A stretch of DNA of 64,000 nucleotides from Escherichia coli (GTDB taxonomy: Bacteria > Pseudomonadota > Gammaproteobacteria > Enterobacterales > Enterobacteriaceae): NCBI RefSeq assembly GCF_045037415.1, contig NZ_CP173438.1. One strand, written 5' to 3'. A model generated the notes under the pieces. That model was not told where the DNA came from, did no database searches, and saw only the letters and a program-made list of their open reading frames with translations. Within the stretch, counting starts at the first letter, position 1. Each line of letters opens with the position of its first letter. The translations under genes were made by a program, and so were the position numbers. Below, one piece after another: positions 39,407-52,229 of this stretch.

Positions 39407-40258
39407 TTACCCCGCCCGATAAAACGGAATATCCCCAAGAATCGTCGCCCGATGCATAATCCGCCGCTGTGGCAGGTAATCCGCATTGGCATAGTGCTGA
39501 GTCACTCGGTTATCCCAAATCGCAATATCATTCGGTTGCCAGCGCCAGCGCACCTGAAACTCCGGTTTAGTGATATGGGCAAACAAAAAACCTAACAAGG
39601 CTTCGCTCTCTTTCTCGCTGACATCAACAATTCGTGTGGTAAAACCTTCGTTCACAAACAGTGCCTGTTTACCGGTCACCGGATGCGTTCGCACCACCGG
39701 ATGTAGCAACGGTGGATTTTTCGCGACCGCCTCACGCCAGCGTTGATGCTCAGCCTCGGTTTTGCGGTACTTGTATTCCGGGAACGATTTACGGAAATCA
39801 TGCTCCGCACGCAACCCGCTCAACAGCTGGCGGAAGGGAACAGAGAGCGCCTCATATGCGGCAATACCACTGGCCCAGAGCGTATCGCCGCCGGTCGAGG
39901 GTAACTCTTTCGCCGCCAGAATCGCCCCTGCGGGTGGCGTTTGAATAAATGTCACATCGGTGTGCCAGTTGTCGTTATCCGGCGGATTATCATTATGGGT
40001 ATCCAGGACGATGATCTCGTCAACCCCTTCAGCATGAGGGTAAACAGGGTGAATATGCAGCTCGCCAAAACGCTGGGCCAGCGCGCGTTGCTGCTGCGGC
40101 GTGATAGCTTGATCGCGCAGAAACACCACCTGATGGCGCAGCACCGCATGGTAAAGCTGTTCAAACTGATTATCGCTTAACGGGCGCGTTAAGTCGGCCC
40201 CCGTAATTTGTGCGCCAATATACGGCCCCAGCGGGGTAATGCTCAGACGTTCACTCAT
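39407..40258 (-). CDS. tauD: Taurine dioxygenase (alpha-ketoglutarate dependent), 283 aa
   Basis: ORF translation [50 protein letters not shown]... Confidence 0.96.
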
Positions 40259-41082
40259 TGTACTTCTCCATGCCAGGGCGTCAGGCGGCGCTGTAACGCG
40301 CGCAGACCCAGTTCTAAAAGAAAGGCGATAATCGCAATCACCGCGATCCCCGCCAGCACCACGTCAGTCGCGAGAAATTCACCCGCTGACTGAACCATAA
40401 ATCCTAAACCGCGCGTTGCGGCAATCAGCTCCGCCGCCACCAGCGTAGACCAGCCCACACCCAGACCAATGCGTAATCCGGTGAGGATTTCCGGCAGCGC
40501 GCCGGGCAAAATGACAAACCACAGCACCTGCGCACGGCTGGCACCCAGCGACTGGGCGGCACGAATGCGAACCTGCTGCGCGCTTTTCACCCCCGCCAGC
40601 GCCGACATCGCCACCGGCGCAAAAATCGCTAAATAGATCAGCAAGATCTTCGAGGTTTCGCCAATACCAAACCAGATCACCATCAGCGGCAAATAAGCCA
40701 GCGGCGGCACCGGACGATAAAGCTCGATTATCGGATCCAGAATGCCGCGCACCGTCGGGCTTAGCCCCATGGCGATCCCGACCGGAATACCGATCAACAC
40801 CGCCGCGAGTAGCGCCAGCAAAATGCGCGTCAGGCTGGCTGCCAGATGCTGCCACAGCGTGGCGTCCATAAATCCCTGCGGCCCGGCAATGGTGAGCAGT
40901 TTTGCCAGTACCTGTTGCGGTGGCGGCAAAAACAGCGGGCTAATCAGTTGCAGCGCCGCGACTGCCCACCATACAGTGAGCAAAACCGCTAACGTACCAA
41001 TGCTTAAGGTCACCTGACGCGAGAGCGGCCAGCGCCATTTCAGCCGATGCGAATGCAGTATTTCATTAATGAGCACACTCAT
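40255..41082 (-). CDS. tauC: Taurine ABC transporter permease, 275 aa
   Basis: ORF translation [59 protein letters not shown]...; 4-bp overlaps with tauB and tauD. Confidence 0.95.
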
Positions 41083-41846
41083 GAGAACGCCTCCCGTTGC
41101 TCAAATACGCGGCTTAAAACATATTCGCGCATGGCGATGAATTGTGGATCGGACTTGATGCTGCGGCTCGACTCTCCCGCAACAAAGCGGCGAGCAAAGT
41201 TGAGCGGCAGCCGCTCCAGCACACGGCCTGGGCCGGGTGAAAGCAAAACCAGTTCAGTCGCCATAAACACCGCTTCTTCTATATCGTGGGTAATCAACAG
41301 CACCTGCTTTCCCGTCTCCTGCCAAAGTTTCAGCAGCAGGGTTTGCATCTGGTCGCGGGTGAAGGCGTCCAGCGCACCAAACGGTTCGTCGAGTAATAAC
41401 AGCTGGGGATTTGCCGCCAACGCGCGGGCAATCCCCACCCGCTGACGTTGACCACCGGAAAGCTGCCAGATGTAGCGTTTTTCTGCGCCTTCCAGCCCGA
41501 CTTTTTTCACCATCTGGTGTGCGATTTCCAGTCGCTGCATTTTCTCTACACCTGCCAGTTGCAGGCCGAACGCCACGTTGTCCTGTACATTGCGCCACGG
41601 TAACAACCCTTCATTCTGAAAAACTACGCCACGCTCTGCTCCCGGTCCCTGAATACCCTTACCCGCCAGTTGAATGCTGCCATGCTGATAAGGCACAAAA
41701 CCAGCAATCAAATTCAGCAACGTAGTTTTGCCGCAGCCAGACGGCCCCAGAACTACCAGAAGCTCGCCGCTTTCCAGCGTCAGGTTGATATCTTCCAGTG
41801 CCGGTTTGCCGCCATAATCGGCGTAAAGATGAGAAATTTGCAGCAT
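41079..41846 (-). CDS. tauB: Taurine ABC transporter ATP-binding protein, 255 aa
   Basis: ORF translation [50 protein letters not shown]... (Walker A, LSGGQRQR signature). Confidence 0.95.
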
Positions 41847-41858
41847 CTGCGCCTCCTT

Positions 41859-42821
41859 TTATTGCACGAAGCGCGAGGTAACGTACTGGCTGTAATCATT
41901 CGCTACAGCCGGGACTTTGCCCTGCTCTTTCAAAAACTGCGCGGTGTCGATGATCGCTTTGTTCACCGGTCCGGTCAGTTCTGCCGTTTGTTGCTGCGGC
42001 GTCAGATAGGTATTCCCCTTCACCAGCCCCGGAACGTCACCTTCCGGCACGCCGCTTAACCGCGCCAGTTTGCTGATGTTTTCCGGCTGTTTCAGCCACG
42101 CGTCTGGGTTAGCAATGTACGGTTGCTGAGCATCGATGGCGCTTTTAGCGAACGCTTTCACGACCTCAGGATGTTTCTCGGCAAAATCTTTCCGCACGAC
42201 CCAGACGTCCAGTGTCGGCGCGCCCCACTGCCCGACCTGTTCAGAATCGGTCAGCACCTTGCCATCTTTTTCCAGGGCGTTAACCGCCGGTGCCCATACA
42301 TAAGCACCATCAATATCTCCCCGCTGCCATGCGGCGATAATTGCGGGCGGCTGCAGGTTCACAATCTCAACTTGCCCAGGTTTAATACCCCAGTGTTTCA
42401 GCGCCGCCAGCAGGCTGTAGTGGGTGGTGGAGATAAACGGTACGGCGATGCGTTTACCAATCAAGTCTTCCGGTTTACTGATAGTTTTCTTTACCACCAG
42501 CGCTTCGGAGTTACCCAGTTTTGACGCCAGCAAGAAGACTTCAATCGGCACCTGTTGGCTGGTTGCAACCGCTAACGGGCTGGAACCGAGGTTGCCGATT
42601 TGCACATCGCCCGAAGCCAGCGCCCGCACGATGCTGGCTCCACTGTCAAACTTACGCCAGTCCACGGTTGCTCCGCTTTCTTTAGCAAAGGTGTTGTCGG
42701 CCTGAGCCACTTTCGCCGGTTCGGCGGAGGTTTGATACGCCACGGTGACGTTCACCGCTTGCGCCTGAAAAGCGATGAATGCCAGTGCGGCAAGAAATGT
42801 GTTACGCGATGAAATTGCCAT
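41859..42821 (-). CDS. tauA: Taurine ABC transporter periplasmic binding protein, 320 aa
   Basis: ORF translation MAISSRNTFLAALAFIAFQAQAVNVTVAYQTSAEPAKVAQADNTFAKESGATVDWRKFDSG... Confidence 0.95.
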   Translation of the reverse strand: MAISSRNTFLAALAFIAFQAQAVNVTVAYQTSAEPAKVAQADNTFAKESGATVDWRKFDSGASIVRALASGDVQIGNLGSSPLAVATSQQVPIEVFLLASKLGNSEALVVKKTISKPEDLIGKRIAVPFISTTHYSLLAALKHWGIKPGQVEIVNLQPPAIIAAWQRGDIDGAYVWAPAVNALEKDGKVLTDSEQVGQWGAPTLDVWVVRKDFAEKHPEVVKAFAKSAIDAQQPYIANPDAWLKQPENISKLARLSGVPEGDVPGLVKGNTYLTPQQQTAELTGPVNKAIIDTAQFLKEQGKVPAVANDYSQYVTSRFVQ

Positions 42822-50391: not shown

Positions 50392-50400
50392 GACCGTTCC

Positions 50401-51267
50401 TTAAGGGCGTGCGAGGAAATTCAGCACCAGTTGATTGAAAGCGTCGGCATGTTCCCACTGCGCCCAGTGACCACAGTCGCGGAAGATATGCAGTTCAGAA
50501 CCGGCAATGCCGGACAGCAGACGCAGACCCGCATCCATCGGCACAAAGCGGTCGTTGCGCCCCCAGACAATCAGGGTTTGCGCTTTGATTTCCGCCAGAC
50601 GTGGGCCAAAATCCGGGAACTGTTTCGGATTGGCTTCCAGGCTCTTAACGAAGTTTTCCAGGTGATCGCGGCGCGACAGCATATTATTCAGGCGCGCTTC
50701 AAACAGGGCGTCGGTCAAATCGCTGGTATCAAAAACGAAGATATCCATCATCAGCTTCAGGTTTTCGATAGTCGGCTGACGATAAAGCTGATTCAGTCGC
50801 TTAATACCTTCGGTTGGCATCGGCGTAAACAAACTCATGCCGCCCGTACCGCCGCCCATCAGCACCAGTTTGCCGACGCGCTCCGGCCAGTTAAGAGTGA
50901 ACGCCACAGAACTGTGGCCACCCATCGAGTTGCCCAGCAGGTGGATTTTGGCGATATCCAGTTGATCCACCACGCTTTTCAGGATTCGCGCATTAAGATC
51001 CGATCGCGAACCACTATTAACGATCGAATCGCTCTTACCCCAACCCGGACAATCCAGCAGGATCACCCGATAGCCCGCCTCTACCAGCGGATCGATATTG
51101 CGGCTGAAGTTCGCCCAGCCAGTAGCACCCGGGCCGGAACCATGCAGCAGGACAACGGTTTCGTCGCCTTGTCCGCAGTCATTAAAATGGATGCGCAGCG
51201 TTTTACCCGCTTCTTCTACATTCAGAAAACGGCTGGTGGCGGCTTCGGTTTGTGGCTGATAACTCAT
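50401..51267 (-). CDS. mhpC: 2-hydroxy-6-ketonona-2,4-dienedioate hydrolase (alpha/beta hydrolase), about 288 aa
   Basis: ORF 50401..51330; [54 protein letters not shown]... with GNSMGG nucleophile elbow; start uncertain (alternatives at 51282 or 51330). Confidence 0.9.
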
Positions 51268-51284
51268 CATCTTCTCCTGCATAT

Positions 51285-52229
51285 TCAGTTCTCTGTTCTG
51301 GCGCTTAACGAGCCAAATCCGGCAATCCACTCCGGGATTGGGCGGTAATAACGCCCTTCGCTACGCCAGTTGCCAAACGCAGAAATAGCGGCAAAAGCGG
51401 CGACCCAGGTTTTGATTTCATGTGTCGACTTTCCGGCAATGGCGGAAAGCTCTTCGTTACTGACGGCATCCAGTTCCTGTATGCGTCCCTGCTCCAGCAA
51501 AGTCATGAACTGGTTATCCCAAATCGGGTTGAGCGGATGCAGCGTTCTCTGATCCTCAACAAACTTCTCAGCGGCGCTAATCACCCGTTGCTGACGCAAT
51601 TCGCGCTCACTGGCGGGTAAATCTTTCCCGCTCCCCAACAGACGGTCGCGCATATGGGCATCGGCTTTCGCCAGTTCGGGCACCGGCGGCTGATGGGAAA
51701 GCCCACCGGAACCCAGGAACAGCACGCGTTTATTGAGAGTACTGGTGAAACGTCCAATGGCTTCCCCCAACATGCGGGTACGCTGGAAACCGGGCAGCGG
51801 CGTGGCGACACCGTTGATGAACACCGGCAGTACTGGCACCTTATCCAGCCCACCGAGCAGGAACTCCAGCGGCTGGGCGAACCCGTGGTCCACCTGCATA
51901 CAGTAAGAAACGGCAAGATCGATCCCGCTCTTCATGACGGCATGCGCACAGGCCTCCGCCAGCTCCACAGGCACGGGCAGCTCTCCTGCCGCACTGCCGA
52001 AATCACCAATTGCCGTCGCTCCAACGCCTAAACAGAACGGTGGCATCACGTCATAGAAAAAGCCGTTGTAGTGATCTGGCGCAAACAGCACCACCAGTTC
52101 AGGGGAGAAAGCCGCAATACGCTCGCGGGCGCTGGCAATCACGCCATTGACCTCATCGAGTACCTCTTGTGCCGGGTCGACATACCCCACCAGCGGCGAG
52201 TGGGAAAGACAGTGAAGATAAGCGTGCAT
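51285..52229 (-). CDS. mhpB: 3-(2,3-dihydroxyphenyl)propionate 1,2-dioxygenase (extradiol), 314 aa
   Basis: ORF translation [65 protein letters not shown]... Confidence 0.95.

Follow-up and report, generated by a model that had tools for sequence, protein, structure and literature searches.

Start/stop overlaps in the tau, mhp, sbcDC, and codBA operons of an Escherichia coli chromosome are ordinary tight junctions with probable translational coupling

Six pairs of neighboring genes in the tauABCD, mhpABCDFE, sbcDC, and codBA operons have overlapping stop and start regions in a 64,000-nt stretch of an Escherichia coli chromosome (contig NZ_CP173438.1 of assembly GCF_045037415.1; this whole stretch is the window). 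We are highly confident that these are ordinary junctions of co-transcribed genes, five with a spacing of -4 nt (NTGA) and one of -11 nt (phase 1), and that translational coupling is their most likely consequence. Real coupling is probable for most of the pairs, as an inference and not a demonstration. A sequence-only reading of the window had taken the overlaps to imply coupling, for which they are a strong prior only. Dependence of downstream on upstream translation is likely, considering the overlaps, Shine-Dalgarno (SD) motifs, start codons, annotations, and conservation that were observed.

Overlapping junctions of the four operons

The overlaps listed by the sequence-only reading were recovered at their positions by direct reading of the sequence, from the list of open reading frames (ORFs), by mapping of genes from strain SK1144, and in K-12. 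The gene names, coordinates, and operon assignments of that reading are also correct in the annotations of SK1144 and K-12. The overlaps are:

40255-40258, minus strand: ATGA, tauC stop (TGA) and tauD start; direct reading and coding sequence (CDS) boundaries; K-12 387795-387798
41079-41082, minus strand: ATGA, tauB stop and tauC start; direct reading, ORF list, SK1144, and K-12
48635-48638, minus strand: ATGA, mhpF stop and mhpE start; direct reading, ORF list, SK1144, and K-12
49582-49585, minus strand: ATGA, mhpD stop and mhpF start; direct reading, ORF list, SK1144, and K-12
13526-13529, plus strand: ATGA, sbcD stop and sbcC start; direct reading; K-12 415750-415753
62651-62661, minus strand: 11-nt overlap GTGTCGAATAA of codB and codA, with the GTG start of codA within the end of codB; K-12 356171-356181

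The tau and mhp operons have the following extents and spacings between successive genes:

39407-42821, minus strand: tauABCD operon; spacings A-B +12, B-C -4, C-D -4
47625-53895, minus strand: mhpABCDFE operon; spacings +1, +17, +9, -4, -4

Strain SK1144 (NZ_AP018784.2) is collinear with the entire window at ~99.99% identity, its one difference being an IS1397 copy between araJ and mak. We mapped 57 complete RefSeq CDSs of this strain onto the window, leaving out secD, which is cut at the window start. Gaps between mapped CDSs are -4 for the five listed pairs and -11 for codB/codA, and boundaries in the ORF list agree. The same six overlaps are present in the K-12 reference annotation, and supplementary Table_2 of Huber et al. 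2023 prints identical spacings (five of -4 and one of -11; PMC10666635). The six overlaps are thus already known, both annotated in references and tabulated in print. They are ordinary, being of the commonest gene-junction type in E. coli and prokaryotes and lying within well-characterized operons.

The overlapping frames are not chance ORFs: for a random frame, the chance of running 275-1047 codons without a stop is 2e-6 to 1e-22, and the genes downstream encode conserved proteins. An overlap of 4 nt cannot accommodate a terminator plus a promoter, making co-transcription a fair inference.

Tight junctions are as frequent in the window as in the genome at large. Of 37 co-directional neighbor pairs, seven are spaced by -8 to +6 nt (six at -4 and one at +1) and three by +9 to +12 nt. 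Genome-wide counts in K-12 are 707 of 2,987 pairs (24%) and 203 of 2,987 pairs (7%), respectively. Binomial tails against these frequencies (P = 0.81 for at least seven pairs at -8 to +6 nt, and 0.46 for the +9 to +12 class) show no enrichment of overlaps, and the junction density of the window is typical of the genome.

Start codons and ribosome-binding sites

Each of the six overlapping starts is preceded at 6-10 nt by an SD motif that lies inside the upstream gene, with SD duplex energies of -5.6 to -10.3 kcal/mol:

40266-40269, minus strand: tauD SD, GGAG
41090-41095, minus strand: tauC SD, GGGAGG; strong, -10.3 kcal/mol
48646-48650, minus strand: mhpE SD, AGGAG
49592-49598, minus strand: mhpF SD, AAGGAAG
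13512-13515, plus strand: sbcC SD, GGAG
62668-62672, minus strand: codA SD, GGAGG

One or more overlaps could be annotation artefacts, with the real start lying downstream and the genes not overlapping. We consider this extremely improbable. It is best accommodated at tauC, where an in-frame GTG two codons downstream (+6; 41074-41076) could share the same SD at a 12-nt spacing and leave a gap of +2 nt; SD spacing would be poorer, and the annotated ATG is spaced near-optimally from GGGAGG. For tauD, mhpF, mhpE, and sbcC the nearest downstream starts lack an SD or would cost conserved motifs. In tauD, the next start is at +114 nt, has no SD, and would remove 38 residues. The next in-frame ATG of mhpF, at +54, would lose the nucleotide-binding motif IIGSGNIG, and alternatives in mhpE would lose the conserved DVTLRDG segment. 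No alternative start was found within 50 codons of the sbcC start.

In the other direction, no in-frame start codon occurs in tauC, tauD, mhpF, mhpE, or sbcC from the preceding in-frame stop up to the annotated ATG. An in-frame ATG of codA at -15 sits 5' of the codA SD and itself has none. In 80 loci of other species, MhpF and MhpE homologues have starts that lie a few codons at most from those of E. coli. Because upstream starts are missing, alternatives lose motifs or an SD, N-termini of homologues match, and the independent RefSeq and K-12 annotations concur, the overlapping ATG and GTG starts look authentic, with tauC retaining a weak alternative in the GTG at +6. The overlaps therefore hold in the comparison with reference start codons that the sequence-only reading had proposed. 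Alternative starts, which it had named as a possible refutation, fail to remove the overlap at five of the six junctions and are weakly possible at tauC.

One boundary of that reading needs correction. It had extended the region to 51330, the position of the GTG that opens the longest mhpC ORF, and the accepted start of mhpC is the ATG at 51267 or 51270. These two positions are tandem candidates (ATGATG, minus strand) and are backed by PDB chains 1u2e (MMSYQ..., 289 amino acids) and 9ijk (MSYQ..., 288 amino acids); alignments of BphD homologues begin consistently with either. Starting there, mhpC follows mhpB after a spacer of 14-17 nt, whereas the GTG at 51330 would make it overlap mhpB by 46 nt.

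Conservation of spacing and protein complexes

Sequences around the junctions are nearly invariant within E. coli. Several complete genomes of the species match the surrounding 12 kb at 100% identity. Relative to K-12 MG1655, which matches the window from secD to codB in reversed order at 95.7-97.6% identity, junction segments with 75-nt flanks have 0-2 mismatches in a region that differs by 2-4%. Both mhp ATGA junctions are also retained in Citrobacter, Kluyvera, Pseudocitrobacter, and Pluralibacter, in which MhpF is 86-93% identical.

Across Proteobacteria, 74 of 79 loci keep a tight spacing (-11 to +17 nt) from the dehydrogenase to the aldolase gene (mhpF to mhpE). The largest single class is -4 (21 loci), alongside +10 to +13 (28 loci in all), +4 (10), and -11 (5). 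For tauB and tauC, both Acinetobacter and Gemmobacter have a spacing of -4; that of S. meliloti is -8 and that of Paraburkholderia is -1. Over 1,695 species, the medians in print are -3.4 for TauB to TauC (n = 1689), -3.4 for SbcD to SbcC (n = 861), 1.85 for MhpF to the aldolase (n = 276), and 12.9 for MhpD to MhpF; our own cross-species tallies agree with these. Because the spacings of mhp and tau junctions vary in register across species, the conserved feature, as judged from these comparisons, is the tight spacing of complex-forming partners, with the ATGA register appearing as one of several interchangeable states.

In two loci with MhpF homologues (L027 and L035), the dehydrogenase ORF appears to run into the aldolase gene by far more (-143 and -238 nt). 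These apparent overlaps likely reflect either loss of the upstream stop codon, which would produce long phase-1 overlaps, or errors in automatic boundary calls.

Three of the six pairs encode annotated or predicted partners. Gene pairs at short distance are 4.5-fold enriched for heteromeric complexes. In the table of Huber et al. 2023 (PMC10666635), TauB/TauC, of an ATP-binding cassette transporter, and SbcD/SbcC are marked "CMPLX yes", and MhpF/MhpE is listed as not a complex. In the co-crystal entries 1nvm (DmpFG), 8ih7, 4lrs, and 4jn6, MhpF matches chain B and MhpE chain A (E values of 1e-94 to 1e-184), including DmpF at 1.7e-160 and DmpG at 2.9e-184, and by homology are predicted to form a channelling aldolase-dehydrogenase complex. 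No complex partnership is known for TauC/TauD, MhpD/MhpF, or CodB/CodA. Coupling would be sensible for TauB-TauC, SbcD-SbcC, and MhpF-MhpE as subunits of complexes, and the overlaps of the other three pairs may simply be compact operon design.

Coupling weighed against independent initiation and RNA unfolding

Each downstream ATG or GTG follows an SD that lies in the 3' end of the preceding gene. If the pairs are coupled, a ribosome ending at the upstream UGA would sit on the downstream start, where it or its 30S subunit could re-initiate, or it could keep the site accessible to a new 30S subunit. The amount of downstream protein made would then follow that of the upstream protein. Two models have been published, termination-reinitiation and de novo initiation assisted by RNA unfolding, and the mechanism is contested in E. 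coli. Termination-reinitiation is supported by a steep dependence on distance, with efficiency reported highest between -4 and +3 nt, and by strict coupling in four of five native E. coli -4 pairs (hyfHI, astDB, ydbH/ynbE, plus menDH; Huber et al. 2019, PMC6728339).

The overlaps could instead be functionally neutral, with free 30S subunits initiating at each gene's own SD and ATGA arising as a by-product of genome compaction and turnover of start and stop codons. We view this as unlikely. In its favor, bioBF, the fifth pair in the one systematic test of native E. coli pairs at -4 (Huber et al. 2019, PMC6728339), initiates independently. Depletion of ribosome recycling factor left coupling unchanged genome-wide, including expression ratios of overlapping pairs, and the authors of that study favor de novo initiation. 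Usable SDs precede all six starts in the window, and at tauC and codA the SD has the strength that independent initiation needs. Spacers of +4 or +10 to +13 nt in homologous operons also fit neutrality. Opposing it are the strict coupling of the other four native pairs, the peak of coupling efficiency at -4 to +3 nt, and the distribution of MhpF-MhpE junctions, whose sharp peak at -4, with none at -5, -3, or -2 among the 79, suggests selection on the exact register.

Several further observations weigh against coupling. No coupling experiments on the tau, mhp, sbcDC, or codBA pairs were found in the literature searched. Expression of tau is limited to sulfate starvation and that of mhp to the presence of an aromatic inducer, so standard profiling data probably miss both. 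In other species, just 12 of 66 loci have a spacing of -4 from the hydratase to the dehydrogenase gene (mhpD to mhpF), the rest being mostly +5 to +68 nt, and tauC and tauD are ~+17 nt apart in Acinetobacter. As far as these comparisons indicate, the exact overlap is dispensable in evolution.

That Acinetobacter junction also bears on a more speculative idea. At tauC to tauD and codB to codA, a membrane permease gene overlaps the gene of the soluble enzyme that uses up the imported substrate. Tight coupling on an mRNA held at the membrane by co-translational insertion of the permease could place synthesis of the enzyme beside the transporter. We regard this as highly doubtful; if true, TauC-TauD and CodB-CodA would each form a local transport-metabolism unit, beyond having matched protein amounts.

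Coupling could also operate through RNA unfolding, in which ribosomes translating the upstream gene melt a local or long-range helix that sequesters the downstream ribosome-binding site. This mechanism counts among the two standard models. For the junctions examined here it is improbable. A candidate helix was considered at mhpF/mhpE, where the single-sequence fold pairs the mhpE SD (AGGCAGG) with CCUGCCU ~80 nt upstream, a pairing shared by the minimum-energy and centroid structures. We rejected it as a long-range helix masking the SD: it is absent from the consensus fold of eight enterobacterial orthologues, covariation is negligible (term of -0.17), and a synonymous change in a proline codon breaks the middle pair in four of the eight sequences. 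Unusual local stability was likewise rejected, as all six junction segments fold no better than their shuffled versions (z of -0.52 to +1.00). The unpaired probability of the SD-start region is 0.51 at the junctions versus 0.43 at 48 other starts in the window; accessibility is thus not reduced, as independent initiation would also have it, and the slight excess (Mann-Whitney p = 0.044, uncorrected) is given no weight. The lack of unusual structure, the retained accessibility, and the unconserved helix argue against the unfolding model at these sites. Two options are left: the terminating ribosome reinitiates or hands over, or initiation at an intragenic SD is independent.

Scans for other RNA and transcription signals yielded little. 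No Rfam family matched at the gathering threshold in the whole window. Between 39000 and 54500, a consensus scan returned 5 promoter-like matches versus 10.4 expected from shuffles and 26 terminator-like matches versus 20.1, counts that are not evidence of function. Internal promoters or terminators at the junctions were rejected, as this consensus scan gave no signal beyond that expected from shuffles; a 9-of-12 promoter-like match at 40284-40257 falls across the tauD start and carries no meaning.

Other junctions, pseudogenes, and neighboring features

Two further junctions resemble those of the main set:

20350-20353, minus strand: ATGA, end of ykiA (pseudogene) and start of ykiD (small-protein gene); sequence and annotations
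52227-52233, minus strand: TGAtATG, mhpA stop and mhpB start with 1 nt between; same tight-junction class

With ykiA/ykiD, the window has six ATGA sites at which TGA shares two bases with the downstream NTG; codB/codA, at -11 nt, is of another class. The sequence-only reading had missed the ykiA/ykiD junction, and its list of overlaps was in this respect incomplete. ykiD (26 codons; ykiA and ykiD together span 20273-20691, minus strand) is preceded at 5 nt by the SD GAGGAA. Coupling of ykiD would require translation of the ykiA remnant, perhaps from an in-frame TTG at 20631.

The same reading had also concluded that frames are intact throughout the window and had detected no frameshifted pseudogenes. 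Translation is clean for 55 of the 57 mapped SK1144 CDSs, and no frameshifted gene was found among them. Nevertheless, ykiA (20350-20691, minus strand), a DUF2773 gene without its N-terminus and start codon, is a pseudogene in K-12 and in the Prokaryotic Genome Annotation Pipeline (PGAP), and a small ORF at 28096-28299 is flagged by PGAP for an internal stop; a frameshift is involved in neither case. The claim of intact frames without pseudogenes is overstated and does not follow from the overlaps.

Some differences from K-12 lie beside the operons under study. Next to codA, the cynR-cynTSX genes (~3.6 kb between lacA and codA in K-12) are absent, leaving at 61258-61377 a 120-bp spacer of palindromic units like repetitive extragenic palindromic (REP) elements. 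About 49 nt of it (61266-61314) match K-12 on either side of the cyn region, which suggests gain or loss of cyn at repeated REP sequences. Upstream of tauA, the K-12 segment yaiO-yaiX(IS2)-yaiP-ykiC-yaiS (~5.2 kb, frmR to tauA) is absent at 42859-43024, and the tauA-frmR spacer of 305 bp has a REP-like element at ~42975-43030. The mhpE-mhpT spacer (47450-47624) measures 175 nt compared with 577 nt in K-12, of which ~360 nt are K-12-only sequence.

Further differences and features were noted elsewhere in the window. An intact gene for a 995-amino-acid autotransporter occupies 34880-37867 (minus strand), and its K-12 counterpart is the IS3-disrupted pseudogene yaiT; the region of its N-terminal half at 36325-37769 (~1.4 kb) has no K-12 match at the blastn settings used. 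About 107 nt of the frmB(fghA)-yaiL spacer (45479-45585) align twice to adjacent K-12 sequence, which indicates a local duplication or a difference in REP copy number. The near-identical strains SK1144, SK0189, and AH19B041 have the IS3-family element IS1397 in the araJ-mak spacer (~18022-18024), where the window does not; this is a strain-level insertion polymorphism. Just upstream of frmR, at 43050-43102, is a near-perfect 21-nt inverted repeat (ATATACTATAGGGGGGTATGC ... GCATACCCCCCTATAGTATAT) that overlaps a 10-of-12 promoter-like match at 43072-43100 and is presumably the known FrmR operator/promoter.

Overall, the window is a normally organized stretch of E. coli chromosome in which tau, mhp, sbcDC, and codBA have textbook tight junctions, and as such it matters very little. 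The only practical use of the overlaps is as a check on start-codon annotation, which passes with the mhpC start (51267/51270) and the tauC GTG alternative to be noted. A small addition is that tight spacing of the aldolase and dehydrogenase genes is conserved as the ATGA register swaps with -11, +4, and +10 to +13 nt.

Comparison with known systems

Relative to the native -4 pairs of Huber et al. 2019, the junctions described here come from the same organism, share the ATGA register, and likewise place an SD within the upstream ORF. They differ in that three of the six (tauC/tauD, mhpD/mhpF, and codB/codA) have no known complex partnership, and coupling is predicted.

The classic coupled pairs trpB-trpA and trpE-trpD likewise have a stop/start overlap within one operon and an SD in the upstream coding sequence. 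Coupling of the trp pairs was shown genetically, and trpBA uses a -1 register (TGATG), unlike the ATGA of the pairs studied here. We know of no comparable genetic demonstration for the tau, mhp, sbcDC, or codBA junctions.

The closest structural parallels to mhpF/mhpE are the dmpF-dmpG and bphJ-bphI pairs (1nvm), which share the order hydratase-dehydrogenase-aldolase and the tight dehydrogenase-to-aldolase junction found in 74 of 79 loci. Unlike the ATGA of E. coli mhpF/mhpE, most homologous junctions (all but 21 of 79) use -11, +4, or +10 to +13 nt. We suggest from this distribution that the mhpF/mhpE ATGA is a lineage-specific state of a junction that is generally tight.

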